DNA of 64,000 bases from positions 31,290-95,289 of IMG/VR virus record IMGVR_UViG_3300031949_000012; one strand, given 5' to 3'. Position numbers and translations under genes: made by a program. This DNA is from a virus. Shown one piece after another: positions 4,219 through 45,050 of the stretch. Under the pieces are notes generated by a model, which worked only from the letters and a program-made list of their open reading frames with translations, was not told the origin of the DNA and made no database searches. How positions within the stretch are numbered: position 1 is the first letter of the stretch; each line of letters opens with the position of its first letter.

Positions 4219-4254
4219 CAAAAAGTCCCTGGCTGCCGGTCCAGGGACTTTTTG
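4219..4254. terminator. Bidirectional intrinsic terminator
   Basis: CAAAAAGTCCCTGG-ctgccggt-CCAGGGACTTTTTG. Confidence 0.88.
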
Positions 4255-4302
4255 CTTCTCAGGAGGTCCAACAAAACAAAAAGGAGGAAAACAATGTTTA
4301 CG
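4219..4302 (-). ncRNA. Candidate anti-RBS sRNA 1 (~84 nt)
   Basis: Lies between a perfect promoter and the terminator; no ORF; carries ACAUUGUUUUCCUCCUU and UUGGACCUCCUG tracts. Confidence 0.65.
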
Positions 4303-4308
4303 GGCTAA

Positions 4309-4337
4309 ATTATATATGATGGTTACATATCTGTCAA
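4309..4337 (-). promoter_or_regulatory. Sigma70 promoter, perfect consensus
   Basis: TTGACA-17 nt-TATAAT on the minus strand. Confidence 0.88.
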
Positions 4338-4338
4338 G

Positions 4339-5049
4339 CTAGAACGGATATTGCAGCCAGTTGGCGTCGTAGGTCAGAGGACCACCTGGCACGGGATGAT
4401 AGACAATGGTGCCTGGGTCGCACCAGATTGTTAGCCCAAAGGCCATTCGCAATGAATGGCAAAGCCCCTGTACCGCGTCTGCCTCAGTCAGTCTTGCGCC
4501 GTCATAAAGAGGGCCAGCCGGAAAGAGAACAACTGCTCCGGCTGTCAGTATCTCAAATGGTTCTGTCTTCTCCTTTAGCCAACCGGGGTGAGAGGGAAAG
4601 TTGTCGCCGTCCAGTTTGCGAAATCCCCAGATGTCATAGAAAGAAGGGCCGGCCATAATCAGGGGAGCGATGATCTCTTTCTGATGGGCCAGGAGCCGGG
4701 CGAGCAAAGCGGAGGCGTAAAGTAAGTCACTATCCAAATAGAGAACATAATCAGCCCAACCGTCTTTTGCAGCTGCATCGAGAGCGGCGTTATACGATAA
4801 TGCCAGGCACTTGAAGCGCTCTGGGTGAACGACACTGCCATAATGCTTAATGCCGGTATGAACTATTGAGATGGATATATCGGGCAGAGCAGCGGCCAGG
4901 TACTTCTCCGATGGCAGGGAACTATCCCCAACAGTAACATAGGGGCGGACTTCGATACTGCCGTAGTTGAGGGACTTTACCCGGTTGATGTAACGATGGC
5001 AATATTCCTCAGTGTTGTTTCTGAAGATGCTGATAATGGCGACTTTCAT
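4339..5049 (-). CDS. GT-A fold glycosyltransferase (Anp1/CAP59-like), paralog
   Basis: VAIISIFRN, VHPERF, YLDSDLLY (DxD), IIAP, FYDIWGFR. Confidence 0.72.
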   Translation of the reverse strand: MKVAIISIFRNNTEEYCHRYINRVKSLNYGSIEVRPYVTVGDSSLPSEKYLAAALPDISISIVHTGIKHYGSVVHPERFKCLALSYNAALDAAAKDGWADYVLYLDSDLLYASALLARLLAHQKEIIAPLIMAGPSFYDIWGFRKLDGDNFPSHPGWLKEKTEPFEILTAGAVVLFPAGPLYDGARLTEADAVQGLCHSLRMAFGLTIWCDPGTIVYHPVPGGPLTYDANWLQYPF

Positions 5050-5108
5050 TTTAACCTCGCTGAATATTAAAAAATTGCCTCAATTTATTGTAAACCAGCC
5101 AGGCGCAC

Positions 5109-5137
5109 TTGACAAGTTATGCGGCTTATGTTATATT
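5109..5137 (+). promoter_or_regulatory. Sigma70 promoter upstream of virion operon
   Basis: TTGACA-17 nt-TATATT with extended -10 TG. Confidence 0.75.
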
Positions 5138-5205
5138 TGACTGGAATGTCGTCCTATATGTAGGGCGTGGGTTGAAACTAATTATAGAGAACGGGTGATG
5201 TGGCT

Positions 5206-5243
5206 TAGGGCTGCGGTAGTATAACCGCAGCCCTATTTTTTTT
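5206..5243 (+). terminator. Intrinsic terminator in the leader of the virion operon
   Basis: TAGGGCTGCGGT-agtata-ACCGCAGCCCTA followed by T8. Confidence 0.85.
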
Positions 5244-5261
5244 GGCTGACAGGAGAAAGTA

Positions 5262-6587
5262 ATGCCCTGGGATGTCTTCAAAAAGGACAATGAATACTGC
5301 GTACACAAGATAGATGATGATGGCGAGATGATGGGCGAGTCATTAGGCTGTCACAAGAGCCGCAAAGAAGCAATGGCCCAAATGAAAGCCCTCCACGCTA
5401 ATACCGATGAGAAGTTTGAAGATGAGCCGATTGGCTTCGGCTGGACTCTCCTGGCCGTAGCTGCCACCAACCGGCCGGGGACGCAGCAAAAGGGACACGA
5501 ATTATCCCTGGCAACGATAGATGGTAGAACCTACATTCGTACCCCCATAGTCAAGAAATCCGTAATCCGTAATCGAGGCAAAGTTCACCGCATTGACCAG
5601 ACCGTTTTTGACCAGGTTCTTCGGAACCACACCAATGAAGTCTGGGATAGTGCGCCTTATTTGCGCGTTTCTCATGAAGAGGGGGAAACCCGGCCGCCAG
5701 CCTTATGTTGGTTTGATAAGGACTCAGGCGGCTTTTTGCGCCAGGAGAAGAACTGGCTGGTCGGTTACGCATTGCCAGCTGATGCGGAAGTGGAAGATGC
5801 CATTAAGAAGAAGAAATGGCGCTATGCCTCAGCAGACCTTCACCCCGACTATACCTCAAACCAAATTGCGGTTTTAGAGACGGCAACGTTTGAATATCTT
5901 AGTGACAATCAGTTAAAGGAGATCAAGATGGATGAAAAAGAGAAAGAGCGCCTGCTTCAGCTTGAGCAGGAGCGAACCGACCTGCTGACCCGTCTGGAAG
6001 CGTCTGCGAAAGATCAGCTGCGCTTGCAAGAGCAAGTCAAGGAACTTTCAGTTAAGTTGTCCGGGACCTCTCAACCCCAGCTGGATGATGCGCCAGCTTG
6101 GGTAAAGGAGAAATTGGCCCAGCTTGAGAAGGAAAATATGGCCCTGGCCTTCGAGCGCGAGCAGGAGCGCAAACAGGCGCAGCTGGAACGCCGGGTGGCC
6201 AAGGCTGAGGCAATGGTCGCCAGACTTACGGCCAAAAGGGATAATGGCTATATTCTGCCGGCCGTGGTTATCGAAACGGCCAAGTCTTTGGTATTGGCTC
6301 AACCCATTGGTGAGGGGGACCGGGTTATTCAACTTGAAGCAACCCGTCCGCCCACAGTTGAGGAGCTGATGGATTATTACTTTGAAGGTGTCCAGCAGTT
6401 GGTCAACCTTATTCCGCCGATGGTGCGGTTAGAAGGGCAAACCGAGACGACCGATGTCCGCCTGGAAACCCTGACCGGGCCATTTGGTTATAGCCCGGCT
6501 GAGCTGGCCAAGAAATATGCAGAGAAGGCTGAGAAAATCTGGAGCGCATCACTGCCAGCCAAACAGGCCGGAAACAACGCAAATTAA
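5262..6587 (+). CDS. Prohead protease/scaffold protein (Mu I/Z-like organisation)
   Basis: Precedes decoration and capsid genes; WRYASADL segment; coiled-coil C-terminal half with internal RBS and ATG at 5928. Confidence 0.65.
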   Translation: MPWDVFKKDNEYCVHKIDDDGEMMGESLGCHKSRKEAMAQMKALHANTDEKFEDEPIGFGWTLLAVAATNRPGTQQKGHELSLATIDGRTYIRTPIVKKSVIRNRGKVHRIDQTVFDQVLRNHTNEVWDSAPYLRVSHEEGETRPPALCWFDKDSGGFLRQEKNWLVGYALPADAEVEDAIKKKKWRYASADLHPDYTSNQIAVLETATFEYLSDNQLKEIKMDEKEKERLLQLEQERTDLLTRLEASAKDQLRLQEQVKELSVKLSGTSQPQLDDAPAWVKEKLAQLEKENMALAFEREQERKQAQLERRVAKAEAMVARLTAKRDNGYILPAVVIETAKSLVLAQPIGEGDRVIQLEATRPPTVEELMDYYFEGVQQLVNLIPPMVRLEGQTETTDVRLETLTGPFGYSPAELAKKYAEKAEKIWSASLPAKQAGNNAN

Positions 6588-6619
6588 CTCCCCCGTAAGG
6601 GGAAAGGAGAAAGAGTAAC

Positions 6620-7033
6620 ATGGCTAATCCGACTTCCTGGGTCAGCAAAGGCCCGAAATTCATGTCGCCGCTGGCCTCAACCGATAACCTTGCCCGGTTG
6701 CTGCCCCGCATGTTCGACATGGCTTACCCCCAACTTACTTTTGTTGACGCCACTCACGTTCATGGTGAATATGCAACGCCTGGCCTGGTGGTTGCTCTTA
6801 ATAGCGTGACCAACAAGTATGTCCCCTGGGTTACTGACGCCTCACACGGGGCGGGCAGTGACACGGCGGTTGGCATCTTAGTTGAGCTGCTTGAGATTAC
6901 TACCTGGGACCGGGCCTGTACACCGGTTTATCATGGCGAGATGGTGGAGCAATACTGCTACACCGAAGCAGGCGCAATCGGCACAATTCCGGCCGGGGTC
7001 AAGACTGACTTGCCCGACATTCAGTGGAAATAA
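6620..7033 (+). CDS. Head decoration protein (gpD-like)
   Basis: 137 aa between scaffold and capsid; KYVPW...GSDTAVGIL motif; strong RBS. Confidence 0.72.
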   Translation: MANPTSWVSKGPKFMSPLASTDNLARLLPRMFDMAYPQLTFVDATHVHGEYATPGLVVALNSVTNKYVPWVTDASHGAGSDTAVGILVELLEITTWDRACTPVYHGEMVEQYCYTEAGAIGTIPAGVKTDLPDIQWK

Positions 7034-7045
7034 GGAGAATAGAAA

Positions 7046-8236
7046 ATGTCTCAATATGCAAATCTGTGGTTGCATCGGACCTTCCTTGAGGAAGTTCTGA
7101 AGAAACGGCCGGATCGGAGCAAGGTTGGCTACCTGCAAAACTTCATCTGGCGCGAGTTCTTTCAATGGAAAATGTTTGACTCCCGCAATATCCTGATGGA
7201 ACGCGGTCGCGGCCAGAACCAATTGGCCGGTCTCTCCTCACCAGAAGGCCAGGCATTGCCTCGGCCGAAGGTGAGCGGTGACACCTTCCTCTCGACCCTG
7301 ATGGATGTCAAATCTTATGCCCTGGTCAAGCCCGACATTGTTCAGGCTGACCTTCAGTTGGGCGAATTGGCCGTAGCCAGAGCCACCGGCACATCGGTTG
7401 CCCGGCAGATGGAATCTAAAGTTACCGACTACATTACAAACGAGATGGCTGAAAATGAGGATGTGGTAGATAACATGTTGGAATATCTGGCTGTGGGCGC
7501 ACTCAAGAACGCCGTTACCTGGCCGCCAGTGACTAATGCCGGCGCTGCTATTACACCGGCCCCACGCTACTGGGGTTCAGAGATTGCCGGTACCTGGAAT
7601 GTGGGCCTGGCCGCCGAACTCAACCAGGTGATTACTTCTCTGGTGGATAACGCTGGTTCTGCGGCGACAGCCGACCAGCGCAAAGTCTGGTCCGACGCTT
7701 CGGCTGACATCATTGGGGCGCTGGACGTGGTAGACCAGATTTGTCGCCAGAACCACGCTTTCACTATCCGGGGTGGACAGATTATTTGCCGCAGCACGCT
7801 GATGAAACACCTCATCAAAAATACGGCCATCTTGAACCTGCTGCGAGGCGATACACATGAACAACCAGGGGCCAGCGGCTTCATTACTACCAAACAGCTA
7901 GAGGACTGGTTTGCCACCGGTCTGGACTACAAGTTCCGGTTCTATGACACCTTCTGGACATACGAAGCGTTGACCAAAAATGCCGACTATACGCCCTCAG
8001 TTGTCTATTACCTGAACGAAAACGAAATTATCTTTATCCCTCCGCAAGGAATCAGCGGTTGGATGGGCACAGCGCCGCTGGAAACCGAAGATGGCTCCTA
8101 CAATGAAGGCGGCCCGATGCCCTGGCTTTACCGGCGGCCAAAACCGCCTTACGAGCGGGAGATGGGTGTTCACACAGTCGCCTGGCCAGTATTTGCCGAC
8201 AACCTCATGTGGGTTCGGCTTCAGGTCTTAACCTAA
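7046..8236 (+). CDS. Major capsid protein (lambda gpE-like)
   Basis: 396 aa, strong RBS, synteny; EYLAVGALK, WSDASADIIG and C-terminal AWPV segments typical of gpE-like capsids. Confidence 0.8.
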   Translation: MSQYANLWLHRTFLEEVLKKRPDRSKVGYLQNFIWREFFQWKMFDSRNILMERGRGQNQLAGLSSPEGQALPRPKVSGDTFLSTLMDVKSYALVKPDIVQADLQLGELAVARATGTSVARQMESKVTDYITNEMAENEDVVDNMLEYLAVGALKNAVTWPPVTNAGAAITPAPRYWGSEIAGTWNVGLAAELNQVITSLVDNAGSAATADQRKVWSDASADIIGALDVVDQICRQNHAFTIRGGQIICRSTLMKHLIKNTAILNLLRGDTHEQPGASGFITTKQLEDWFATGLDYKFRFYDTFWTYEALTKNADYTPSVVYYLNENEIIFIPPQGISGWMGTAPLETEDGSYNEGGPMPWLYRRPKPPYEREMGVHTVAWPVFADNLMWVRLQVLT

Positions 8237-8247
8237 AGGTTTATTTT

Positions 8248-8889
8248 ATGGCAGCGCCGGCCGCGCCTTTTTGTACCACAGCTGATGTAGCCAGTCTGCA
8301 TCCTCAGCTGTTGAACCAGGGGACAGACTTTACCGATGGACCAAAGGCGACTTCACCGGCCAAGTCGGTAATTACAGCCTACATCACGCTCATCTCGAAC
8401 CAGGCCTTGATGAAGTTTCGCCGGGCCGGTTACAAGATACCTTTTGTGGAATTGGCCGGCGAAACCTGGCCTACAGACCAGACAGTTTACATGCAACTCC
8501 TGACCATGTTGGGAGTATCTGGTCTGATGGCCGGCCCATCCATCTCCAATCCGGGAGTACGTGGGCGGCAGAACAATGTCTTCAAGGAAGAGTTCCTGCA
8601 AGCCCTGAACGAGATTTACGACCCGGCAACGGATGTGGCGATGCCCTGGCGGGCGCAATATTACTCGCGTACCGCCGCCGAGCGAGCTATTGGGACACCG
8701 GCGCTGCCAATGACCGACTATTTGAACGAAACTTATGACCCGTATCTTCATTATAGTTTCTACGATCTAACCACCAAGATACACTCCGTTCATCGTATCT
8801 TCAAGGATGTCCTTGACCTTGACTGGGATTACAGTTGGGGGCTGAACGACCTTAACAAAGGTATAGGGCGAGAGATACGTGAGTTATGA
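8248..8889 (+). CDS. Putative head-tail adaptor
   Basis: Follows capsid; N-terminal FCTTADV and GYKIP motifs typical of adaptors. Confidence 0.6.
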   Translation: MAAPAAPFCTTADVASLHPQLLNQGTDFTDGPKATSPAKSVITAYITLISNQALMKFRRAGYKIPFVELAGETWPTDQTVYMQLLTMLGVSGLMAGPSISNPGVRGRQNNVFKEEFLQALNEIYDPATDVAMPWRAQYYSRTAAERAIGTPALPMTDYLNETYDPYLHYSFYDLTTKIHSVHRIFKDVLDLDWDYSWGLNDLNKGIGREIREL

Positions 8890-9437
8890 TCAAAGACCTG
8901 ATTAACCAGGCCGTAACTGCCATTGTGCCGGCGCCCACCGATGCAGTCCCGGTTAATATCCTGATTGTAGACGATGACTATAGCCAGGTGCAGGCCATTC
9001 ATCGTCTGATTAGCCAACGGGGAATCAAGGTAGAGCCGGCCGGAGGAGCCAGGGAAGCTCTGGAAAAGCTGGATTGGGCGGACATTGTTCTTCTGGATTG
9101 GCGATTGCAGGACAAGGATGCTCAAGTAGTCATAGACCGCTGGGTAGACCGGAAGCAAGATGGGCCGCTGGCTATTATCTCCGGTTACATTACCCCGGAG
9201 CTCAGACAAAAGTTGCTCAAAGAAGGGGCTCACATTGTTTTGGAGAAGCCGGTAGACCTTGAGCTGATGGTGCGAATTTCTGTGCGCTGGATAGAATATA
9301 TTCGGCGCGAGAAAGAGCTGACCCAACTCAAGAAGGATATATACCGGCTCAAAACAACTGGTCTTTTAATCCTAATCCTGGCCTTGGCTTCAATGCTTGC
9401 TTCTCAGGCTGGCCTATCACTGGCAGATTTATGGTGA
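8886..9437 (+). CDS. Orphan response-regulator receiver domain with C-terminal transmembrane helix
   Basis: ILIVDDD, IVLLDW (phosphoacceptor), IISG, LEKP motifs; then coiled coil and hydrophobic tail. Confidence 0.82.
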   Translation: MIKDLINQAVTAIVPAPTDAVPVNILIVDDDYSQVQAIHRLISQRGIKVEPAGGAREALEKLDWADIVLLDWRLQDKDAQVVIDRWVDRKQDGPLAIISGYITPELRQKLLKEGAHIVLEKPVDLELMVRISVRWIEYIRREKELTQLKKDIYRLKTTGLLILILALASMLASQAGLSLADLW

Positions 9438-9739
9438 CAATTATTTATTTGAGCCTGGTTTTCTTATACGCTTGCTTTACTATTTACTATATAACTCTTT
9501 TTACAATCATCATAGTCTCACTAATGGAGAGGCCAAAGAACAAAGATGGCTGGTCTATTGCCCTGATTTATCTGATAGACTGTGTGATTACCGGAATTAT
9601 TGGTTGGTTATTATTTGTAAGATGGTATAACGGTACTCCACTTATTCTATCTGGTCATTTCGCCATGTTAATAGCAAACATTATCAAAATTCCTATTGCA
9701 ACCTGGTTCTTTTATCGCTTCTTTATCTTGAAGAGGTAA
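9431..9739 (+). CDS. Small multi-pass membrane protein (possibly holin-like)
   Basis: Three hydrophobic segments in 102 aa, basic C-terminus, AT-rich. Confidence 0.55.
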   Translation: MVTIIYLSLVFLYACFTIYYITLFTIIIVSLMERPKNKDGWSIALIYLIDCVITGIIGWLLFVRWYNGTPLILSGHFAMLIANIIKIPIATWFFYRFFILKR

Positions 9740-9813
9740 GACATGCAATATCTGATTGAAACCTTACTTATGTTTAACTTGCGACGAATATTTAGCTTGC
9801 GACGAAAACGGTT

Positions 9814-10302
9814 ATGACCAGAAAACTGGTGGGCACAAAAAAGTTAAGTTTAAGCGACGATTTTCTCATCAGGTTGTCCGAACGGATGCGGGGGACGCTA
9901 ATTCAAACTGCTTCAGCTCAGGACACGCTTGAACCTAGCGCTAAGGTAGTGGCAAAAAGCACCGGTGACATTGCCTCGATTGCTTCCGGCCTTGAGAAAT
10001 TGGCTGAGATTGCCAGGGGGACAGAACGTGATTTATCGGCCGTTTCCGGTCATCTGGCCGAGCTGGATATGCAAAGCCTGGTTGATAGAATGGCCGTTGA
10101 TTTGACCAGGATGCTCAACTTTAAGGAGATTGCCCGTTATGATGCCGGGTTGATAAAGGATTTACTAGTTGCCGCCGACCGGCCCATCCTATTTGACGCT
10201 TTACGCCAGGGGGAGCCGGATTTGGTTGAGAAGCTAAAGGGCATCATTGTAGCAGTAGAGCAAAATCGTATCGAGAGGAGCCGGCTAAAGAATGGCCTTT
10301 GA
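9814..10302 (+). CDS. Hypothetical helical protein
   Basis: 162-aa ORF overlapping the next virion gene. Confidence 0.6.
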   Translation: MTRKLVGTKKLSLSDDFLIRLSERMRGTLIQTASAQDTLEPSAKVVAKSTGDIASIASGLEKLAEIARGTERDLSAVSGHLAELDMQSLVDRMAVDLTRMLNFKEIARYDAGLIKDLLVAADRPILFDALRQGEPDLVEKLKGIIVAVEQNRIERSRLKNGL

Positions 10303-11463: not shown

Positions 11464-11806
11464 TAAATTGCAAACGCCGGTTGAAATTGAACCCATCGAA
11501 ATCACCGTAACCGAAGAAACCGGCTTTCTAACTCATGAAGATGAAGTAATCCCTGAAAGCAACGGCTCACTTCCCCGGCCAACGGTTTCAATGGCCTGCA
11601 TTTCTCGGCTGGGAAGTTATAGCTGCACCGGGCTTGTTACTGGCAGGTCTTATCATATTGAACATACCGGCACATCAGGTATAGACCTGGAAGATGCCGA
11701 AATTATTTCTACTACGTCCATCACCATCCGGTGTAGGCGCACCGGAGGTTGGATCGATGTAATTCCGGCCGGAATTACATCGGATATTGAGTTTGTCGAA
11801 ATATGA
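11429..11806 (+). CDS. Hypothetical protein
   Basis: ORF fills the gap in the operon; start uncertain. Confidence 0.5.
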   Translation: MSRGVPVTRRFDKLQTPVEIEPIEITVTEETGFLTHEDEVIPESNGSLPRPTVSMACISRLGSYSCTGLVTGRSYHIEHTGTSGIDLEDAEIISTTSITIRCRRTGGWIDVIPAGITSDIEFVEI

Positions 11807-11834: not shown

Positions 11835-12494
11835 ATGGCTGAGTTTTTTACCCACGCAGGACCGACCGCAACCTTACCCTACACCGCGGAATGGGAAAGC
11901 AGAGTTCGTATTGGCACAGGCCAGGGCTATGCAGCCCTCTCTGTTACCGGAGACTTATACGTCGCCGGATATGATTATGCCTCGATTGGATTGCAGGCCA
12001 GCAAAGCAACCGACCTGGGCATTTTGGGGGCGGCGCCATCCATTGAACCCATTGCTACCTTTGAGGAAATTGAGGGTGGTAATGTCAAGAGTTCAGGCGA
12101 ATTTAGCCTGACTGAGGAAGGGTTGACGATTGGCCTCTCCCTCCGGGAGTGGAACCCCACCGTGATTGAAGCGGTTGTGGCTAACGGTTCCATGTATACG
12201 GTTGGGGCTGGCGGCACGCAGCGGCTGATTGAGGCTGGTGGTTCTTGTACCATTCGTAACCGGCCGCTTGAAATTTCAGCGTTCAATATCGGTTGTAACG
12301 CGCCGGCAGCACAAGCTATTGCTGCCGGTATCCAGGGCTGGGTGATGACCGTTTATGGCGGGTACTTCTCGTCAGGTTTTAACATTGGCGAGCTTTCCCC
12401 GCGTGAAACCAGCATTTTGGAGCTGGAATATACGGCTATTCCGCTGTTGACCAAGGCCCTGGGCAACCGACTTTATAACATCTACATGTATTAG
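11835..12494 (+). CDS. Major tail tube protein
   Basis: Strong RBS, 219 aa beta-rich, directly upstream of chaperone and tape measure. Confidence 0.7.
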   Translation: MAEFFTHAGPTATLPYTAEWESRVRIGTGQGYAALSVTGDLYVAGYDYASIGLQASKATDLGILGAAPSIEPIATFEEIEGGNVKSSGEFSLTEEGLTIGLSLREWNPTVIEAVVANGSMYTVGAGGTQRLIEAGGSCTIRNRPLEISAFNIGCNAPAAQAIAAGIQGWVMTVYGGYFSSGFNIGELSPRETSILELEYTAIPLLTKALGNRLYNIYMY

Positions 12495-12502
12495 GAGCTT
12501 TT

Positions 12503-21754: not shown

Positions 21755-23158
21755 ATGGCAACTGGAATTTTCAAGATACATCCCAAGAACGGGCCAACGA
21801 TTACGATAGACTATCCCGGCCAGGGCGCTGGGCCTTACTTCTTTATCTTGGCTGACTTCAATGAGGGTAAGCGACAGGAAGTCATCTATTCTTCCGGTAA
21901 AGTGGGTGGCGTGGTGCAAGGGGTCAATTCAGGCCTGGTCGAGATAGAGGTAGTTATTCAGGTAGCCGGAAATTCTGAGGCAGAATGTTCGTCCTTAGTT
22001 CGGCCACTCATGTACGCCCTGGGCGACAAGGATGGCGGCACGATTGAATACAAGCCGGTGGAGTATGCCGATAACGTCTTGCATACCTACTACACCTACT
22101 TACAAGCCCCACCGCCAACAATCTACGCTGCTAAAACTACGGTTTCGGACAGCGACTATAAGCTGGGCGTAGCCTATCAATTCAAGATTAAGACGAAAGC
22201 CTGGGCGACAAGCGATCCGGCAAACCCGGTTGCAATTACCTCTGGATCAATAAGCGATGCTAATTCAAATTCGGTTACTGTTCTTTCAAGTGCATTAAAG
22301 GGAGACATTACCTTTCCGAATTTTACGATTACGCCTACTTTGGATTTGCCAAGTGGACAACACGCTAAAGCCGTTTTGTTTTATACACGTGAAAGTGATG
22401 GCGCAGCAAACCGAGAGGTTATGGATGGTACAGATTTTACCGGGCCAAATTCGTCAGACGGAAGCAACTATAAACTTATTACTGATGATACAATTCTAAC
22501 AGCGCCAATTACATCAGGGTTGAATAAGTTATATTTTGGTTGGGTTACACCTATACTTGATATATCAAGAAATAGTGCTGGATCACCTGGGCAAACCGTT
22601 GAGGTACGAGTTGGTATTCAAAGCGATAGCATGACCGATGTTATTGAATGGTCCTCTCCTATAAAAATTGTAATACCTGGGGATGCTGATAAAAAAGTAT
22701 ATTTTATCCCAGAGATACCATTTCCTCCCATATATCTTGGCTCCGACTTATACATCTCTGGTATTCTTGATGCCTTGAATATTAAAGTTCAATTTACTCT
22801 GGGAAACTCCGACCCAATTCGGTGGTATTTCATGGGATTACTAAAAGCCGACGAGTATATAACCATGATCAAGGATCATCCATCTGGCCCTGGTCTTATT
22901 AGTCCAAATCATATCAAAGTCAGTTCGCACGACGAAAGCGTTAATTGTTTTAACACCGATGACGCTATTATTTCTCCCTGGCATATAAGCGGGACACCTT
23001 TATCTGAATTTATTATTTCGTCTAATAGATCGACCTCATTGAAGTTTTATCGGTTGAGAATTACGAATGAAGAATATCTTCTAATGGGAAGTGGAAGTAT
23101 TTTTGGGGTCGTCGTTACAGGTGTTTTCGGAACAATCTATCCTTTTGATGAAGCGTAA
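21755..23158 (+). CDS. Putative distal tail protein (Dit-like)
   Basis: Immediately follows tape measure; beta-rich. Confidence 0.55.
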   Translation: MATGIFKIHPKNGPTITIDYPGQGAGPYFFILADFNEGKRQEVIYSSGKVGGVVQGVNSGLVEIEVVIQVAGNSEAECSSLVRPLMYALGDKDGGTIEYKPVEYADNVLHTYYTYLQAPPPTIYAAKTTVSDSDYKLGVAYQFKIKTKAWATSDPANPVAITSGSISDANSNSVTVLSSALKGDITFPNFTITPTLDLPSGQHAKAVLFYTRESDGAANREVMDGTDFTGPNSSDGSNYKLITDDTILTAPITSGLNKLYFGWVTPILDISRNSAGSPGQTVEVRVGIQSDSMTDVIEWSSPIKIVIPGDADKKVYFIPEIPFPPIYLGSDLYISGILDALNIKVQFTLGNSDPIRWYFMGLLKADEYITMIKDHPSGPGLISPNHIKVSSHDESVNCFNTDDAIISPWHISGTPLSEFIISSNRSTSLKFYRLRITNEEYLLMGSGSIFGVVVTGVFGTIYPFDEA

Positions 23159-37437: not shown

Positions 37438-37564
37438 CGCCAGCCGAAGAACAGGCGCATCATGAGTAAATGAAACCAGGCAGGTTTATGATTAACTTCT
37501 ATCATAAACCCTTCAGCCAGGATTAAAAATCCGCCCGACTTACGTGATGTAAACTGCAAAGATT

Positions 37565-38683
37565 TCATAATCTTGTTCTCACAATCTCCTCCCATTCCAT
37601 AGTCCGGCCAAACATGGCCCCACTGATGGGGCAGGTCATAATTCCGATAGGGGGAAAGTGCCCCCGGCGTCCCTTTAGAATTTCAAACCTGGTCCAGAAA
37701 GGACGCAGGTCGCGGTCATAGTCTACGCGTAAATCAGTTTGCGAGGCAAAGTGCAACTTGTTCCCCCCCATGCTGCCGACAACTTTGCCGCCGCTTCTGG
37801 CCGCCCGGATGTTGGTCACGCTCTCTTGGCTTATCGCCCAAAGAGTTGAGCCGGTTAGCTTTACCCATCGTTCCAGGTAGGGGATAACCCGCATTTGCTT
37901 CTCGTAATCACTGCCATCTAAGAAGTAGGCGGTGATGTGGTCAATAACCAGTTGACGTATCCCTTTTTCGGCCAGGGCCAGCCAGCGCTCGAAAGCGTTT
38001 TCGATGATTGAGGTGTCGGTAAACCGCTTTTCTCGTTCTATCTCATCATAGTGCTCTGAAACGCCATAGACAATGATGGGGAAGGTGGCAATGGCAGCGC
38101 CAGCTTTCTCCCAGGCGTCTACTTGACGCTCGGAGAAATTAAAACCGGGTTGGGCGGCATAACAAGCCTCAACGTAATCAGGAAATAGCACACAGTCTTT
38201 CATCATCTTACCATGCTTCGGACTGGTAATCCCCTCTAGCAATAGTTCAGGCGGGTCGTTGGGCAGCGGCCGGTTAAACATCTCATAGAGACAATGTGCC
38301 CCTTGGGGGCCGGTGTAAAATTCATAGACCATAATTTTGGTGGCCAGCATACATCTCATGACCATAAAGTATCGCTCTATGGTCATCCCAGTCTCTAAAC
38401 TGTCCACCGCCATTCGATATTGAGCCGGCAGCATCCCAGATAGAAATTGATTTAAGATGATATTGAGCAGCAGCGTAGTTTTTCTGGCCCCGCCCTCGCC
38501 CTGAATGGCGATAAGCTGGGACATCAAAGGCTTGATGCCTCGCGGAAACGCCTGATCTATATGATAGAAGCCCCAAGGCACGGCCTTGTCCAGGCCGGTT
38601 TCCTTTGGCGGCGTGTACGCCTGTGGCTCGGTCTCCATTGCAATCCGGGCCGTTAATCCAGTTGTAAGGTTGACGGCGCTCAT
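37565..38683 (-). CDS. DnaB/RecA-fold ATPase (probable replicative helicase)
   Basis: Walker A GEGGARKT, Walker B LVIDHI, AISQ, C-terminal KGRRG. Confidence 0.75.
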   Translation of the reverse strand: MSAVNLTTGLTARIAMETEPQAYTPPKETGLDKAVPWGFYHIDQAFPRGIKPLMSQLIAIQGEGGARKTTLLLNIILNQFLSGMLPAQYRMAVDSLETGMTIERYFMVMRCMLATKIMVYEFYTGPQGAHCLYEMFNRPLPNDPPELLLEGITSPKHGKMMKDCVLFPDYVEACYAAQPGFNFSERQVDAWEKAGAAIATFPIIVYGVSEHYDEIEREKRFTDTSIIENAFERWLALAEKGIRQLVIDHITAYFLDGSDYEKQMRVIPYLERWVKLTGSTLWAISQESVTNIRAARSGGKVVGSMGGNKLHFASQTDLRVDYDRDLRPFWTRFEILKGRRGHFPPIGIMTCPISGAMFGRTMEWEEIVRTRL

Positions 38684-39216
38684 TCATTTGACGCTCCGGC
38701 GTAAATGGCGGCAAAGTCGGTGAAGGTCTGTCGGGCGGAAACTGTGGCCATGATAGTCCGCCTCTTTATCCGGTAAAGCTCATTGGCCTTGTAGGTCAGA
38801 GCTGCGCCTTTGCCATTAAGCTGGCGAAGGCTTCCTATGTTCTCAGCCCACCACAGGTCTTTCAAAATAAAATCAAAAAGTTCCAGGGCAAAGTTGCTTG
38901 AGGTTAAGCCCGGCAGCGGTTTTTTTTGCGCCTGTAGAAAGGCTCTGGATCGTACCACGATCCAGTAGGCGCAACGTAACTGCTCACGCTTATCTATCGC
39001 GTCAAACAAAAAAGAGGTCCCGTCACGTTTGGAGATAAACTTTTCCAGAAGTTCAATTAACTTCTGGGCCGCTGCCCTCTCCTCATTTAGTAACGTCAAC
39101 CCCTTCTTTCCGATGTCTGTCTGTGCGCCGGGCAGATATAACTCAACGCCACAAGACGGACAACATCCATGCTTTCTAGCCATGAAAGCAACATTACACT
39201 TGGCACATGTACGCAT
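38680..39216 (-). CDS. Zinc-ribbon protein, possible replication initiator/loader
   Basis: CAKC...CPSC; coupled to helicase; strong RBS. Confidence 0.5.
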   Translation of the reverse strand: MRTCAKCNVAFMARKHGCCPSCGVELYLPGAQTDIGKKGLTLLNEERAAAQKLIELLEKFISKRDGTSFLFDAIDKREQLRCAYWIVVRSRAFLQAQKKPLPGLTSSNFALELFDFILKDLWWAENIGSLRQLNGKGAALTYKANELYRIKRRTIMATVSARQTFTDFAAIYAGASNE

Positions 39217-39249
39217 GTATTCCTCCTATATGTTTTGTTTGGACCAGAC

Positions 39250-39406
39250 AAAAAAGCCGTTTCAGGTTCAATTCTGCTGCCAACCTTCTCCGTCTCACCT
39301 CTACGGGAGAGACCTGCCGGGGTCTTGTTCTGAGAAGAACTGCCGGTTTGCAGCAGAGCCAAAACCAAAACGGCTATGCCCTACTTGTGCGATATAGTCC
39401 CCCGGC
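39250..39406 (-). ncRNA. Long-hairpin RNA/leader upstream of replication genes
   Basis: Stem 39255-39375 with G-U pairs on the minus strand, ends in U6; promoter at 39413-39441. Confidence 0.5.
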
Positions 39407-39412
39407 CCAATC

Positions 39413-39441
39413 ATTATAGCACGAAAATTGATTTTCGGCAA
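39413..39441 (-). promoter_or_regulatory. Sigma70 promoter with palindromic operator in spacer
   Basis: TTGCCG-17-TATAAT; CGAAAATTGATTTTCG at 39422-39437. Confidence 0.75.
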
Positions 39442-39453
39442 GGGGAAAACATT

Positions 39454-39549
39454 AAAAAGAGTAGGGGCTCCCTACAACTAGGGAGCCCCAAAAGGAGGAG
39501 AGAAAATAAGGAGGTGAACAACAGAAGCATTAGGAGGATTCGTTTGTCA
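39454..39549 (-). ncRNA. Candidate anti-RBS sRNA 2 (~95 nt)
   Basis: Promoter 39556-39584, three CCUCC tracts, hairpin 39464-39489 then U-rich tail. Confidence 0.62.
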
Positions 39550-39555
39550 ACCTCT

Positions 39556-39584
39556 ATTATACCCTATTCCTCAAATTTCGGCAA
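39556..39584 (-). promoter_or_regulatory. Sigma70 promoter
   Basis: TTGCCG-17-TATAAT overlapping the SbcC stop codon. Confidence 0.72.
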
Positions 39585-40989
39585 GCTCAACTTCGCTCAA
39601 ATTCTCCTTATTCTTTCGCACCCTGATCACATGGTCAGCCAGGTCAGCCAGGCTGTCATCGTGGGAAATGACGATGAGCTGGTCGTAGTGACCCTTGAGC
39701 CCCGACAGAACCTCCACTAGCTGGCCAATCTGGGGGGCGTCTAAATTTACGGTTGGCTCGTCCAGAATGAACAGCGGCGCTTCCTGCACTGCGCTCAAGG
39801 CCAACCAAACTGAGATGGCAGCCAATCCTTGCTCGCCCCCAGAGAGGTTGGGCTTGAAGCTGATGTGAGGGCTACCATCTATCGAGGCCTCCAGTCCGTA
39901 GTCCGGCAAAATGTAGAGCTCGGCCAGTTCATGGTGAACGCTCATCAGGCGTGAGAAGGTTCTGGTCGCTATCCCCTGGATACGGGCTAGTTTGTATTCG
40001 GTAATCAGGGGCACCGCTTTCTCGATGACCCCGATGACCGCAGCCAGTTTCTTTCTTTCCTCGTAGATGTTGGCAGCTTGGATTTGTAGCTGGCTAACCT
40101 CGGCTTCATTCACGCGGGCCAGGGCCCCTAGACGCTTTTCAAGCGAAGTCAGCTGACGCCGGTTCTCATCAACGAAACCGGTAAGAGCCTTCTCCTGCCG
40201 CTCAATCTCCTGCTGCCGGTGAACTTCCCAGGCTTTCCGGGCGCTCAGTTTTGAGCCACAGACCGGACAAACTGGGTTAATGCTGTCTCTGGCTGGCAGA
40301 GACAGGAACGCATCAGGAGATGTCCGAAATTGGACAAGTGATAGTTCGTGCAGAGCGATGCTATCTCCTAGCTGACTTATCTCTTTAGCTAAGGTTTCCC
40401 TTTGCGCTCCGGTGCTTCGGGATAGCACTTCAGCTTTTGCTTCGAGGGCCTTCTGGTTTGCCTCTAAACCATTGTTTTGAGAGCGTAGGAGGGATAAAGC
40501 CTGCTGATAGGCACTTATCCCGGTTAGCTCGTTGAAAACGTCCCTACGGCGATGTGGGGGCATCAGGAAAGATGATGTGAGTTCCCCTTGGGCGATATAG
40601 CAGGCTGTTTCCGCATAGTAGGGCAAGTTGGTCCCAACCGGCAGGCCCAGATGCAAGCGAATAGCTTGCTCTATCTTGGCCAGGCCATTGACACATTCGC
40701 CATTCCAGTTGAAGTCGGTGATGGAGTTGTGCAAAGCACGGGTGACAACAGCCCGTCCCCCCTGGGTTGATGTAAAGGCAACCTCGACCTGGCCGGTTTT
40801 TGTGCCAGGGCGCAGAAAGTGCCCCTTATTCCGGCTGGGGAGATAGCCGAATAGTCCGAACAGCAATGCCTCAATGATGGTGGTTTTACCTGAGCCGCTG
40901 GCCCCGGCGATGACGTTCAAGCCGGGGGCGAAGTTGACCTTAGCCTGCTGGTACAGGTTGAAGTTCCTCATCTTGACTGAGGTAATCAT
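39571..40989 (-). CDS. sbcC: SbcC/Rad50-like ATPase
   Basis: GASGSGKT, YIAQG Q-loop, CPVC zinc hook, LSGGE signature, ILDEP, ISH. Confidence 0.9.
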   Translation of the reverse strand: MITSVKMRNFNLYQQAKVNFAPGLNVIAGASGSGKTTIIEALLFGLFGYLPSRNKGHFLRPGTKTGQVEVAFTSTQGGRAVVTRALHNSITDFNWNGECVNGLAKIEQAIRLHLGLPVGTNLPYYAETACYIAQGELTSSFLMPPHRRRDVFNELTGISAYQQALSLLRSQNNGLEANQKALEAKAEVLSRSTGAQRETLAKEISQLGDSIALHELSLVQFRTSPDAFLSLPARDSINPVCPVCGSKLSARKAWEVHRQQEIERQEKALTGFVDENRRQLTSLEKRLGALARVNEAEVSQLQIQAANIYEERKKLAAVIGVIEKAVPLITEYKLARIQGIATRTFSRLMSVHHELAELYILPDYGLEASIDGSPHISFKPNLSGGEQGLAAISVWLALSAVQEAPLFILDEPTVNLDAPQIGQLVEVLSGLKGHYDQLIVISHDDSLADLADHVIRVRKNKENLSEVELAEI

Positions 40990-41149
40990 AGCTCCCCTGT
41001 TGGAAATGATAGTGCTCGGAATTTTCGGCTTGCACCGCACTTAAAACGCAATTACACGCGCCGGTTCTAGTTTCCCCTGGGTGCGAGTGCCCATTTTTCT
41101 CAGCATGGTCTTTTGCGAGATGACCACAGCGACAAATAATATCAGTCAT
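40940..41149 (-). CDS. Small Cys/His-rich protein
   Basis: RBS AAGGAG; CRCGH...CNC. Confidence 0.55.
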   Translation of the reverse strand: MTDIICRCGHLAKDHAEKNGHSHPGETRTGACNCVLSAVQAENSEHYHFQQGSYDYLSQDEELQPVPAG

Positions 41150-41426
41150 GGTTCTCTCCTTTCCCAATTTGTCGGAATAGCAGATAGGTTGTCAAAGCGC
41201 CAACAGAACCGGCCAACAATGCTGCCAATAAACCCTTCTCAGCATATAAGAGAAAGTTGAGAATGAATGTAGCTGAAGAATATACGATTATCCATCCACT
41301 AAATTCACCAGCTGAACGAAGGATACCAACATCAGTCAAAATGATGATGACTGTTATAGATATTAACGGTGCTATCATAGCCTTAAATCCAATGAACAAC
41401 ATTTCAAAAAGAGCCTCCCAGTTCAT
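41142..41426 (-). CDS. Small membrane protein
   Basis: Three hydrophobic segments; RBS AAGGAG. Confidence 0.6.
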   Translation of the reverse strand: MNWEALFEMLFIGFKAMIAPLISITVIIILTDVGILRSAGEFSGWIIVYSSATFILNFLLYAEKGLLAALLAGSVGALTTYLLFRQIGKGENHD

Positions 41427-41428
41427 GA

Positions 41429-42544
41429 CTACTCCTTTCCGGCCAGGACGTTTTCTTTCCGGCGCAATGCTTCGCGGGCCAGGGTCTTATCACCCCCGGC
41501 CGCCTGGATGAAGAACGAAAGTTCATCCTGAAGGTGAGGCATAGCTGCAGCTTCGCCGGTTTCGGGTTCGGCTTCAATCTGATGCAGCCGTACAATCAAT
41601 GCTCCGGCCTCTTTCAAGGCCCGGCTAATTTTGAGTAGGTTTCCAGTATCAGGAGAAACCGTTAGATGCACAACTGCATCTTCTATACCTTGCTCGGTGG
41701 TTTCCCGAATAATGTCTTCTTCGGTGTCTAGCAAACTCTCCCGAATGATGAACTTGCGCCGGTCAAGGTAAGGATGGCGCTGATACGACATCAGGCCGTC
41801 GCTGTCTACAAAGACTTGTACCAACCCGCGCCTGGTCCAGGCGTACTCATTTACCGCGCACGTCTCAAGACTGCCCGGACTGATAGCGTACTCAACCTCA
41901 TAAGGCTTGTGGATATGCCCCATTGCCAGGCAATCTACAATCCCCCGGCCGCCTGCAAAGAGAGCCTTGGGGATGACGCCGGACGTACCGGGCAGCACCC
42001 CTTCCAATCCGGCGTGAGCCAGACCGATGGTGAAGCAGCCCTTTTGCTTGTAGGCAGCCAGGTCCCGGATGAGCTTGCCAAAGGCATTAGGCGTTTGAGC
42101 GCCAGCCCAGGAGAAACCCCCAATGGCAATTGAAATGTTGGTCTGGTTATAGTCTAGCTTGATGACGCGAACCTTTATGTCTGCTTGTCGCAGCCCATCT
42201 CGACGTTCAAGCCAGTCGACCCAACCGTCCGGATCGACGTAGCTGGCAAGCTCGTGGTTTCCGGTAACAGCGTAGAGGCCATAGGGGAGCTTGCTATTGA
42301 TGCGCCGGCAGCCAAGCTCCGCGCTATCCAGGATAGCGCCGTTCATACCGCGCTCATGGGTGAGGGAGCGGTCAAACACATCCCCGCCAAACAAGGCAAA
42401 TAGAGGCGTTGGTTCTAGTTTTTCGGTGATAGTTTCCACCGCCCAATTCCAGGCGCGAGAGAAGTCTTCCTCTCTGGCGTCTGAGTTATATTGTCGCTTG
42501 CCCAGGTGGGCGTCAGCAAACACAACAAACGAAAATGGGGTCAT
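41429..42544 (-). CDS. sbcD: SbcD/Mre11-like metallophosphoesterase nuclease
   Basis: DAHLG, GDVFD, GNHE, AH, GHIH, PGS motifs. Confidence 0.9.
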   Translation of the reverse strand: MTPFSFVVFADAHLGKRQYNSDAREEDFSRAWNWAVETITEKLEPTPLFALFGGDVFDRSLTHERGMNGAILDSAELGCRRINSKLPYGLYAVTGNHELASYVDPDGWVDWLERRDGLRQADIKVRVIKLDYNQTNISIAIGGFSWAGAQTPNAFGKLIRDLAAYKQKGCFTIGLAHAGLEGVLPGTSGVIPKALFAGGRGIVDCLAMGHIHKPYEVEYAISPGSLETCAVNEYAWTRRGLVQVFVDSDGLMSYQRHPYLDRRKFIIRESLLDTEEDIIRETTEQGIEDAVVHLTVSPDTGNLLKISRALKEAGALIVRLHQIEAEPETGEAAAMPHLQDELSFFIQAAGGDKTLAREALRRKENVLAGKE

Positions 42545-42552
42545 CGTGCCTC

Positions 42553-43398
42553 CTAATAAGGATAAGGAAATTCTCTTACTCTCATAATTTCCGGCCAACC
42601 GGCCGGGTCTTCTCCTTTGCGGTCTATTGGGGCAAAGAAATGCTTTTCGCCGTTGATGTTTTCTCCGGCATATGGGTTAGCCCCAATTTGCTTCATGAAC
42701 ACCGGTGTACTGGCCCTCTGGCATTGCTTGATAATGCTAATGGCCCAACGTAAGTCGAAGGGCCTGGCCTTGGGGCCACTTTCACCGCCAACGATGACCC
42801 AGTTGACATCCGGCACGTAGGCTTTTAACCTTCCCAATTCATCAATAGGCGGGGTTATCCATCGGGACAAGTCCAGACCTTCCATTAGTGGTTCGCAGCT
42901 CAGGAATTTAATCATGGCCGGTATCTGGCAAAGCTCAAGCATCCGTTCATCAAGATACCTCTGGTTCTCAGCCGATGCGCCTACCCAGATGTGCTCCGGC
43001 CAGCTTTTGAGCCAATGCGCCGGAACCATCCGTAAAACATTTTCTGGCCGCTTAGTCAACATCTGCACATCCAAATTCTTGAGGCTTTCTAAAATCTGAC
43101 AAGCCTCTGACCGCCAGGGCTCAAGCTGAGGATGGTCTTCAAAAAAGTCGCTCATACTCTGGCAAAAGACGAGCTGCCGGATACCGGATTTACCAGCCTT
43201 TCTATCCCACAGAAGGATGTCTGTCCAGGAGGACTTGATGCGCCATCGTTCCGTAGTTTGGGCTGGCCCCCAGATGTCTCTACCGATACGTTTGCTCAAG
43301 GTTTCGGCGTAACAGTGTTGGCAGCCCGGCGATACCTTCATACATCCCCACCAAAAGTTCAGCGTGTGGTGGGTCCAGCCGATTTTAGTGTTCTCCAT
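42553..43398 (-). CDS. Phage Gp37/Gp68 (DUF5131) family protein
   Basis: GCMKVSPGCQHCYAE, SMSDFF, LTKRPEN, SCEPL, WVIVGGESG, FMKQIG. Confidence 0.9.
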   Translation of the reverse strand: MENTKIGWTHHTLNFWWGCMKVSPGCQHCYAETLSKRIGRDIWGPAQTTERWRIKSSWTDILLWDRKAGKSGIRQLVFCQSMSDFFEDHPQLEPWRSEACQILESLKNLDVQMLTKRPENVLRMVPAHWLKSWPEHIWVGASAENQRYLDERMLELCQIPAMIKFLSCEPLMEGLDLSRWITPPIDELGRLKAYVPDVNWVIVGGESGPKARPFDLRWAISIIKQCQRASTPVFMKQIGANPYAGENINGEKHFFAPIDRKGEDPAGWPEIMRVREFPYPY

Positions 43399-43597
43399 GT
43401 AACACTGCCCACAGCTTTTTGCTTAATTCCTGCCTCACTCTTGCTTCAGCAATTTCGTCTGTCAGGTTCTCTACTACATTTGGAATGACATTCAAAACGC
43501 CGCGCAATTGTTTAATGGCGCTTACCAGAACTTCCGCATCGTCACTTCTAATGTCATGATCTAAAACCACGGTCAAGGCATTATATCTGTCAGTCAT
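43385..43597 (-). CDS. Hypothetical protein
   Basis: RBS GGAGGT before ATG 43597. Confidence 0.55.
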   Translation of the reverse strand: MTDRYNALTVVLDHDIRSDDAEVLVSAIKQLRGVLNVIPNVVENLTDEIAEARVRQELSKKLWAVLHGEH

Positions 43598-43865
43598 GTT
43601 TGACCTCCGTCTTATTATATGGTTTCCATATTCCCAAGAGAGGGTCACAACAGGAAATCATTTTGTAGTCAATTAGCTTCTCTATATTCTGTGCTGTCTC
43701 GTGTGGTGGATAGCTTTGCTCTTTGATATAAGCAAGTACATATCCCCCTTCTGGCAGTTCAAACACGGCGGCTGGATTGAACAGGTCGTACCTGTAGAAC
43801 TCTTGGGCGTTCTCTATCGTTTCCTGTTTGCCACTAAACCAATTGATAAAATGATTGATACTCAT
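43590..43865 (-). CDS. Hypothetical protein
   Basis: RBS GGGAGG. Confidence 0.55.
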   Translation of the reverse strand: MSINHFINWFSGKQETIENAQEFYRYDLFNPAAVFELPEGGYVLAYIKEQSYPPHETAQNIEKLIDYKMISCCDPLLGIWKPYNKTEVKHD

Positions 43866-43876
43866 AAGCCTCCCAT

Positions 43877-43954
43877 AAACAAAAGTGGGGCATCTGGCTG
43901 GGATGCCCCGTAAAGGAGAATAGGAGAAAGAGTCATTTGGCTAGAATGTCTCAT
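43877..43954 (-). ncRNA. Candidate anti-RBS sRNA 3 (~75 nt) complementary to structural-gene RBSs
   Basis: Promoter 43960-43988; body AUGAGACAUUCUAGCCAAAUGACUCUUUCUCCUAUUCUCCUUUA; terminator hairpin 43887-43909. Confidence 0.7.
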
Positions 43955-43959
43955 AAACT

Positions 43960-43988
43960 ATTATAAGCCGAAAATTGATTTTCGTCAA
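43960..43988 (-). promoter_or_regulatory. Sigma70 promoter with palindromic operator in spacer
   Basis: TTGACG-17-TATAAT; CGAAAATTGATTTTCG at 43969-43984. Confidence 0.82.
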
Positions 43989-43989
43989 G

Positions 43990-44562
43990 TCATAAGGCTA
44001 TGATTTCCTCCGGGCCAAAGGAGTATTCTGCCTTGCGCCCGTCATTCATATAGTGCTCGATGGAGAGCAACGCGGTGTGAACGGCCATCCGAATGAGAGG
44101 CAAGCCCAAGGTATAGGTGTAGAAGTAATATCCTTCCCAATCCGTATCTTGTATTTGCCAGTTCTCATCCCAGATAACGGTTCCAGTCTGTGTTTCATTG
44201 ACGCTAATGTGCAGGGTAGGGACGCCCAAGTTGTGCAAGAGGTTCCTTGCCCTGGGATTATCCAGAGCGTCTATGATAAGCACCGGCTTTTCCCTGGCTA
44301 GTATCTTGAGAACTAAGTCTTGGGTTAAAGTCTCTTTCCAAGGTTCGGCCTGGGCCTGGCCACGCACATGGATCATGTGCCCCAGCCCAAATGCTTTATT
44401 GCAAGAGATAAGGTCATCCGGGTAGATGGATGCCGCCAGTTTCTCTGGCTCAATCCGGCCGTCATCGAATAGAGTAAAGTATTTGAAGGTCATACACAAT
44501 TCATACCCGATGCGGCTGCCGATTGCGCCACAACCGCAAATCCAAATCCTATTTTGTTTCAT
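43990..44562 (-). CDS. ThiF/E1-like adenylation-family protein
   Basis: ICGCGAIGS, LFDDGRIE, NKA, IIDALDNPRAR. Confidence 0.75.
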   Translation of the reverse strand: MKQNRIWICGCGAIGSRIGYELCMTFKYFTLFDDGRIEPEKLAASIYPDDLISCNKAFGLGHMIHVRGQAQAEPWKETLTQDLVLKILAREKPVLIIDALDNPRARNLLHNLGVPTLHISVNETQTGTVIWDENWQIQDTDWEGYYFYTYTLGLPLIRMAVHTALLSIEHYMNDGRKAEYSFGPEEIIAL

Positions 44563-44737
44563 CGGTTCCTCCTAAGCGATTGACTATATCCTGTAACTTT
44601 AGCAGGTACGCGGTGACAACATCTATATCCCTGGGGTCATGTGCCCTTGGTACGCCAAGACCCAGGCGAAATAGAGCGTGGGCTACATCCGATGGTAGTC
44701 CTTTATTTTGCAGTAATAGATAAATTTCAGCTTTCAT
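44549..44737 (-). CDS. Small hypothetical protein
   Basis: RBS AGGAGG; overlaps ThiF start. Confidence 0.55.
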   Translation of the reverse strand: MKAEIYLLLQNKGLPSDVAHALFRLGLGVPRAHDPRDIDVVTAYLLKLQDIVNRLGGTDETK

Positions 44738-44751
44738 TTTCCTCCTGAAAT

Positions 44752-45015
44752 GGCGAAGACCCCACCAACAGTCAGTGGGGTCTCGCCGCTCAATATATTA
44801 CACCGTTTTTACGGTTATGTTATCTGGCGGTTTACCGTTGCAGTTCTAGCTGCGAGCCCTAGCCGGTAAACCGCGTATCTAATAGGAGGCCGTATATGGC
44901 ACGCGACCTTGGGTCCTGTCCTCTTGTTAGCCGGCTCGTACTAACTGACAGTAGCCCATTCACTGGGGGAGCCGTGGCAACCCGTGTCCGATGCAAGTCC
45001 CTTGTAGCGCCATTG
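44752..45015 (-). ncRNA. Candidate structured RNA (~265 nt)
   Basis: TTGACA at 45044-45049 with TAATCT/GATAAT -10; stems 44827-44874 and 44752-44787; anti-SD tract 44880-44890. Confidence 0.5.
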
Positions 45016-45050
45016 ATAATAGATTATCACACTTTTGGGCTTTTGTCAAG

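Follow-up and report, generated by a model that had tools for sequence, protein, structure and literature searches.

Can a phage silence its own genes at a distance by means of free-standing small RNAs (sRNAs)? The question is raised by three intergenic cassettes on the minus strand of the virus record IMGVR_UViG_3300031949_000012 (IMG/VR), which we call C1 (4218-4337), C2 (39454-39584) and C3 (43877-43988). The window that we analysed is 64,000 nucleotides (nt) long and corresponds to bases 31290-95289 of this single phage sequence of 95,289 bp; all coordinates are those of the window unless 'genome' is stated. An earlier reading, made from the sequence only, had proposed that the three cassettes and a longer fourth unit (unit 4) form a set of trans-acting sRNAs that pair with the ribosome-binding sites (RBSs) of the phage itself. 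Within-genome statistics support part of this set. We estimate a probability of about 0.55 that C1 and C3 are genes for ~80-nt trans-acting antisense RNAs aimed at particular phage start regions 35-47 kb away. The content of C2 is generic, being complementary to Shine-Dalgarno (SD) sequences at large, and unit 4 is, to judge from its predicted fold, a cis-acting leader.

Architecture of the cassettes

The three cassettes were recovered at the same minus-strand coordinates as in the sequence-only reading, each with a predicted sigma70-type promoter, a body without an open reading frame (ORF) and an intrinsic terminator (Table 1). Promoters were scored as matches out of 12 to the sigma70 consensus. 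In the whole genome there are nine promoters that score at least 11/12, compared with about one expected from base frequencies (an estimate). The promoter of C1 is the sole perfect one in the genome, and by chance an estimated ~0.01 perfect promoters would be found per genome. The terminator hairpins begin 42-57 nt past the predicted transcription start, and the bodies (44-60 nt) are unpaired and rich in C and U (CU-rich). In the folding ensemble the terminators are closed, and the probability of being unpaired is ~0.9 or more over the CU tracts of C2 and C3 and over the first tract of C1.

Mini-ORFs on the plus strand of the cassettes were also considered and rejected, as C1 has just a 3-codon stub and C2 and C3 have nothing consistent. 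An Rfam scan gave no family at the gathering score; there were only two matches with E <= 1, both elsewhere and irrelevant.

Table 1. Predicted features of the three cassettes, the proposed targets and the neighbouring control regions
Feature	Position	Strand	Description
C1 promoter	4309..4337	-	TTGACA-17-TATAAT, 12/12; one base past the TAG stop of gene 4339-5049
C1 body	4256..4303	-	48 nt, unpaired, CU-rich, two CCUCC tracts
C1 terminator	4218..4255	-	10-bp hairpin and U tract; bidirectional, also terminates the convergent plus-strand gene 3454-4179
C1 target 1	51313..51333	-	SD, spacer, ATG and first codons of gene 51033-51320 (95 aa)
C1 target 2	39216..39245	-	Start region of gene 38680-39216 (178 aa), the first gene downstream of P2 and the P2 leader
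C2 promoter	39556..39584	-	TTGCCG-17-TATAAT, 10/12; overlaps the end of the SbcC-like gene
C2 body	39490..39549	-	60 nt, three unpaired anti-SD tracts including UCACCUCCUUA
C2 terminator	39454..39489	-	11-bp GC-rich hairpin and U tract
C3 promoter	43960..43988	-	TTGACG-17-TATAAT, 11/12; one base past the TGA stop of the ThiF-like gene; palindrome CGAAAATCAATTTTCG in the spacer
C3 body	43910..43953	-	44 nt, unpaired, two UCUCCU tracts
C3 terminator	43877..43909	-	8-bp hairpin and U tract; SD and ATG of gene 43590-43865 directly after
C3 target 1	6591..6626	+	Start region of the lambda gpD-like head-decoration gene 6620-7033
C3 target 2	7032..7053	+	SD (11 nt) and start codon (9 nt) of the major capsid gene 7046-8236
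Promoter P2 and 190-nt leader	39217..39441	-	Promoter 39413-39441; putative operator palindrome 39422-39437; leader bears a C1 target
Unit 4	44738..45049	-	Promoter and 277-nt structured 5' leader of gene 44549-44737

C1 and C3 are complementary to distant start regions

Over 17 nt (4281-4297), C1 is exactly complementary to gene 51033-51320 at its SD and start (20/21 when extended). This gene lies 47 kb away. Bases 4265-4293 are complementary to 26 of the 30 nt in the start region of gene 38680-39216. C1 is chimeric, with one half matching the gene that starts at 39216 and the other half the gene that starts at 51320. Its plus strand reads as a start site followed by the 3-codon stub (ATG TTT ACG GGC TAA). 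There is no gene downstream of C1, which is flanked by convergent genes, and read-through would run antisense into gene 3454-4179. No family was found for the two target proteins (95 and 178 amino acids, aa), for which an atlas search gave weak leads only.

C3 is complementary to 32 of 38 nt in the start region of the decoration gene, with two 1-nt gaps, and the match includes a stretch outside the SD, CCCCGUAA. The match to the neighbouring capsid gene consists of 11 nt at the SD and spacer and 9 nt over the start codon, in the correct antiparallel order, and the body of C3 is a mosaic that mirrors the start regions of both head genes. There are also matches of 10-12 nt to three more late genes with AGGAGA-type sites (a gene for a 900-aa protein 4.7 kb upstream of the window and the genes at 11835 and 29313), and one of 9 nt to gene 5262.

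The plus-strand sequence at 6588-6609, right after the stop of gene 5262-6587, is CUCCCCCGUAAGGGGAAAGGAG. It can fold such that an upstream CUCC pairs with the SD of the decoration gene, and this fold would be a cis anti-SD hairpin inside the region targeted by C3.

Complementarity compared with chance

We compared the cassettes with a set of start regions covering -30 to +12 of the 143 called gene starts, using three null models. In the first, the body of each RNA was shuffled 120 times with every CUCC core kept in place. The longest match of C1 to a start region is 17 nt, compared with 11.0 +/- 1.2 nt in the shuffles (0/120), and the mean energy of its five best targets was beaten by 0/120 shuffles. 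C3 matches eight start regions over at least 10 nt, compared with 1.2 +/- 1.4 (0/120), and its best energy was likewise beaten by 0/120. In the second model, the start regions were aligned with each other (10,153 pairs), which absorbs the A-rich look that they have in common. The maximum local score of this background is 15, and the scores are 18 and 17 for C1, 15 for C3 and 13 for C2. In the third, each start region was shuffled 200 times while its SD core, start codon and local composition were kept. Here the best score of C1 has p = 0.035 and that of C3 p = 0.005, and the sum of the three top scores was reached by 0/200 shuffles for either RNA. The complementarity of C1 and C3 to start regions is above chance in these three null models.

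Additionally, the full RNAs were co-folded with 65-nt target segments, for pairs that were picked after the fact, unlike in the first and third tests. The energy gain of C1 is -30.5 kcal/mol with the gene at 39216 (-12.4 +/- 3.3 in shuffles) and -25.9 kcal/mol with the gene at 51320 (-14.3 +/- 3.8), and that of C3 with the decoration gene at 6620 is -25.9 kcal/mol (-12.9 +/- 3.0). All three beat 200/200 shuffles.

In the reverse search, with the 143 start regions against the whole genome, significant noncoding matches in the antisense direction were limited to C1 (twice) and C3. In both RNAs the complementarity starts within a few bases of the predicted transcription start. The other leaders that lie between a promoter and a terminator (5144+, 61395-61540, 60235-60465, 58837-59430 and unit 4) have no antisense complementarity to start regions. 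The main source of similarity among start regions outside the SD is a dispersed motif, TGAGCTTGTCGAA, with its variants (for example at 21755, 53165-53184 and genome 13701).

C2 and unit 4

The middle tract of C2, UCACCUCCUUA, is an 11-nt copy of the 3' end of 16S rRNA as in E. coli. There is no gene after C2, which is followed by a second promoter (P2). C2 is best read as a generic anti-SD RNA that has the same predicted build as C1 and C3 and an open range of targets.

Unit 4 had been put forward as a fourth member of the set, and we do not retain it as such. Its promoter is followed by a 277-nt leader that runs into gene 44737 and has a stable fold (z = -3.3). The single CCUCCU tract (about 44882-44891) is predicted to pair in cis with the SD of that same gene (44738-44747; P 0.92-0.98), and there is no trans match to start regions. 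The leader has no Rfam match and no similar DNA among the phage records. To judge from this predicted fold, unit 4 acts in cis as a leader and does not belong with the sRNAs; it looks like a riboswitch or thermosensor.

Genome organization and RBS classes

The phage is tailed. The plus-strand structural arm carries genes for a large terminase, the lambda gpD-like decoration protein, a gpE-like major capsid protein and a 2,765-aa tape measure protein. There are two minus-strand arms, with genes for SbcCD-like proteins, a 5'-3' exonuclease, an RNA ligase and ribonucleotide reductase.

The earlier proposal that late genes use AGGAGA-type and early genes AGGAGG-type RBSs holds as a modest trend: the ratio of AGGAGA to AGGAGG is 7:1 in the plus (late) arm, and the right and left minus arms have 4:24 and 8:11, respectively. 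The proposed fit of each RNA to one class is also borne out. On average, predicted binding is stronger at AGGAGG sites for C1 (Mann-Whitney p = 0.002) and C2 (p = 0.02), and at AGGAGA sites for C3 (p = 0.04). This class preference largely follows from the core hexamer.

A shared palindrome and neighbouring regulatory elements

There is a perfect 16-bp palindrome, CGAAAATCAATTTTCG, in the spacer of P2 and in that of the C3 promoter (43969-43984). The divergent promoter region that separates the left arm from the structural arm, 7.5 kb ahead of the window, has a copy with one mismatch (genome 23785-23800), and there are looser copies at 61549 and genome 11275. Its positions suggest that the palindrome is likely to be a shared repressor operator. 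Because it is common to the C3 promoter and P2, one repressor probably controls both C3 and the operon in which the first gene is the proposed target of C1. The operon downstream of P2 carries a weak match to a DnaB-like helicase.

Upstream of the head genes, the plus-strand region 5109-5261 contains a promoter (TTGACA-17-TATATT, 11/12, extended TG), ~60 nt of sequence and a 12-bp terminator with a U8 tail. Gene 5262, whose SD and ATG come after the terminator, opens the operon for the decoration and capsid proteins in which both C3 targets lie. By analogy, this layout resembles PR'-tR' of phage lambda and suggests that the late genes may be controlled by antitermination.

A minus-strand gene at 59740-60213 codes for a 157-aa protein with a PHAX RNA-binding domain (PF10258, E = 1.9e-9, over the curated cut-off), and it lies directly behind a ~230-nt RNA predicted to run from promoter to terminator (60240-60465). 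The domain suggests that the product may be a phage RNA-binding protein or chaperone. A long noncoding stretch separates gene 58836 from the terminator of a small gene that starts at about 59615. Within it, at 59024-59138, there are two tandem copies of a 42-nt sequence (41/42 identical), each with a minus-strand CUCUCCU adjoining a short hairpin. Finally, 1.45 kb at genome 11115-12566 (about 19-20 kb before the window) have no called genes and contain three copies of CCCCGCCTCCC and several GATAATCAATTAT repeats; this may be a regulatory or origin region.

Proposed action of C1 and C3

We propose that a host sigma70-type RNA polymerase would transcribe C1 and C3 from their own promoters at the end of the upstream gene and would stop at the intrinsic terminator. 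Between its predicted start and the terminator, each RNA would be unfolded and CU-rich, as a mirror image of the SD, spacer and start codon of its targets. The partners of C1 would be gene 51033-51320 and the first gene of the putatively operator-controlled operon at 39216. The main partner of C3 would be the decoration gene, with weaker pairing to the capsid gene next to it and to further late genes with AGGAGA-type sites. Such pairing would cover the RBS and block binding of the 30S subunit, so that translation, and probably message stability, would be reduced. A block of this kind is known from c4 of P1/P7 (PMC12197685) and from numerous sRNAs of bacteria. The outcome would be less decoration and capsid protein in the case of C3 and less of two early proteins in the case of C1. 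The predicted target pairs are 17-38 nt long and are therefore directly testable even without the natural host.

A wider scheme, in which C1, C3 and C2 form a cross-regulatory layer made of RNA only, is tentative and in our judgement somewhat unlikely. Here a constitutive C1 in the structural arm would restrain the first gene of the operator-controlled early operon and a second early gene, and an operator-controlled C3 in the early arm would restrain the decoration and capsid genes. C2, as a mimic of the 16S tail, would tune the translation of messages with strong SDs overall, and the PHAX-domain protein might assist all three RNAs. Early/late timing and reciprocity, dormancy and host targets, all suggested in the sequence-only reading, are speculation. 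With regard to timing and dormancy, the consensus promoter of C1 would be expected to be active at all times with the host polymerase, and there is no integrase among the phage proteins scanned.

Points against the proposal and alternative explanations

Several points weigh against the action of C1 and C3 that we propose. Shuffles that preserve the SD, applied over the phage start regions as the earlier reading had suggested, set C1 and C3 above chance but not C2: in the first test the p values of C2 are 0.07-0.46 on every measure (best matches of 13 and 11 nt), and in the third they are 0.19 for the best score and 0.39 for the top three. The complementarity beyond a generic SD that had been ascribed to all the cassettes thus applies to C1 and C3 and does not extend to C2. 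Start regions have A-rich spacers in common, which raises chance similarity, and the best single score of C1 reaches only p = 0.035. The gene starts come from a self-trained ORF scorer and are rough (the DUF5131 gene, for example, was truncated by the scorer). The order of promoter, short leader, terminator and gene recurs in this phage, at 5109+, 61568-, 60493-, P2 (39441-) and unit 4 as well as at C3. Finally, no usable relative was found in which conservation or covariation of RNA and target could be followed.

The searches for relatives covered DNA and protein. Megablast and blastn against 50,697 phage records gave zero DNA-level matches for this phage. Among 5.8 billion proteins, the SbcC-like protein has no relative above ~50% local identity. 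In tblastn searches, the large terminase gave only matches of at most 30% identity and the major capsid protein gave no match. No related loci were found in locus searches with the SbcC-like and ThiF-like proteins, and the exact C1 and C3 patterns were absent from the viral contigs searched. Metagenome loci with a DUF5131 homologue have no protein in common with the called gene set of this phage, in which just a 49-aa fragment of its own DUF5131 gene is present. When capsid proteins were aligned, relatives in viral contigs had only 26-29% identity and bacterial genomes had none; capsid relatives of 39-75% identity are present in Logan and ENA assemblies. Two of these are encoded on contigs of 66 and 86 kb, and those of 75% and 70% identity are on short contigs that probably include the start of the decoration gene.

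The alternative that survives best is that the cassettes are promoter-proximal attenuators that are read through by antitermination. The short RNAs would then be by-products, like the 6S RNA of lambda (PR'-tR'), and the CU tracts would be parts of leaders. The recurrent design of leader and terminator points to control by attenuation or antitermination in this phage, with a terminator and then the SD and ATG of a gene at C3 (gene 43865), 5109+ (the late operon at 5262), 61568-, 60493-, P2 and unit 4, and the anti-SD tract of unit 4 clearly appears to act in cis. Because this design is general in the phage, C3 could be mainly an attenuated leader of gene 43865. However, of the three cassettes and unit 4, C3 and unit 4 have a terminator between promoter and gene, and C1, which lies between convergent genes, and C2, after which a promoter comes instead, do not. 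C1 and C2 cannot be leaders because no gene comes after them. No antiterminator-like motif common to the leaders was found that would fit an antiterminator site, and the 17-38 nt of complementarity to distant start regions would be left unexplained. We consider attenuation unlikely as an account of the cassettes. The two explanations can coexist for C3, as attenuated leaders can also act in trans, and C3 may be both an attenuated leader and a trans-acting RNA.

A second alternative is that recombination or duplication at gene boundaries left the inverted start-region copies behind as neutral scars, which came to lie between a promoter and a terminator by chance and play no part in regulation. 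The match of C3 to the decoration gene does align like a diverged copy, with its two gaps and the shared stretch CCCCGUAA outside the SD, and the plus strand of C1 still reads like a start site with a stub. Nevertheless, the chimeric structure of C1, with one half from each of two genes, fits selection for pairing better than a single duplication. Such copies are also confined to the presumably transcribed, unpaired stretch between consensus promoters and terminators and occur nowhere else in the genome, and a perfect promoter would hardly be expected there by chance. A neutral origin is thus very unlikely.

That the RNAs act globally, as copies of the 16S tail that rival ribosomes for the strong SDs of phage, host and rival-phage messages or as sponges for a pyrimidine-binding protein, is equally improbable: C2, with three or four unpaired anti-SD tracts including UCACCUCCUUA and no specific target above the shuffles, and the better average binding of C1, C2 and C3 to their own SD class would agree with it, but the gene-specific matches of C1 and C3 reach far past the SD core, and a stoichiometric decoy would require a very high copy number.

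Comparison with known systems

In lambda, the strong promoter PR' is followed by a close terminator, tR', ahead of an operon, and a short 6S RNA is made unless the terminator is read through by Q antitermination. This phage repeatedly has the same order of promoter, terminator and operon, as at 5109+ ahead of the late operon. The 6S RNA is not known to have an antisense target, and no Q-like protein or common leader motif was identified in this phage.

The C-rich sRNAs of the RsaE/RoxS type in Firmicutes have unpaired pyrimidine-rich motifs and a terminator and pair with the SDs of several messages (PMC6158497, PMC8216469). The cassettes likewise have unpaired anti-SD tracts followed by a terminator, and C2 is the closest to this type. 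RsaE and RoxS, however, are chromosomal bacterial regulators with conserved C-rich motifs, and the complementarity of C1 and C3 is much longer and gene-specific. There is no Rfam match to this type in the window, where the tracts are CUCC or CCUCC, and the likeness is one of analogy only.

The sRNA SviR of the PLE satellite of Vibrio cholerae acts in trans by base-pairing and lowers the translation of a phage structural protein (bioRxiv 10.1101/2022.04.08.487710), as we propose for C3. SviR comes from a parasite and is directed against the phage that it exploits, whereas in the present case the targeted genes would be the phage's own.

The c4 RNA of phages P1 and P7 is described as a small RNA that pairs by short blocks with the RBS region of its own message and blocks translation (Citron & Schuster 1990, via PMC12197685). 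It is similar to what we propose for C1 and C3, in that an RNA encoded by the phage is directed against the RBS of a message of the same phage. The c4 RNA is processed out of the operon transcript that also contains its target, which lies just downstream, and its role is in lysogenic immunity. In contrast, C1 and C3 each have a predicted promoter and terminator of their own, at a distance of 35-47 kb from the proposed targets. Additionally, there is more than one RNA here, head genes are among the targets, and no lysogeny genes were found. The Rfam covariance model of the C4 family gave no match in the window. The suggestion in the sequence-only reading that no such set is known in a phage was too strong, as c4 of P1/P7 (PMC12197685) and SviR (bioRxiv 10.1101/2022.04.08.487710) are comparable.

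If our proposal for C1 and C3 is correct, a phage that looks lytic would use several free-standing sRNAs to silence distant genes of its own, namely those for capsid, decoration and early-operon proteins, and the timing of phage gene expression would have an additional layer of control at translation. The antisense RNAs known from phages, by comparison, mostly act beside their own gene or guard lysogeny.

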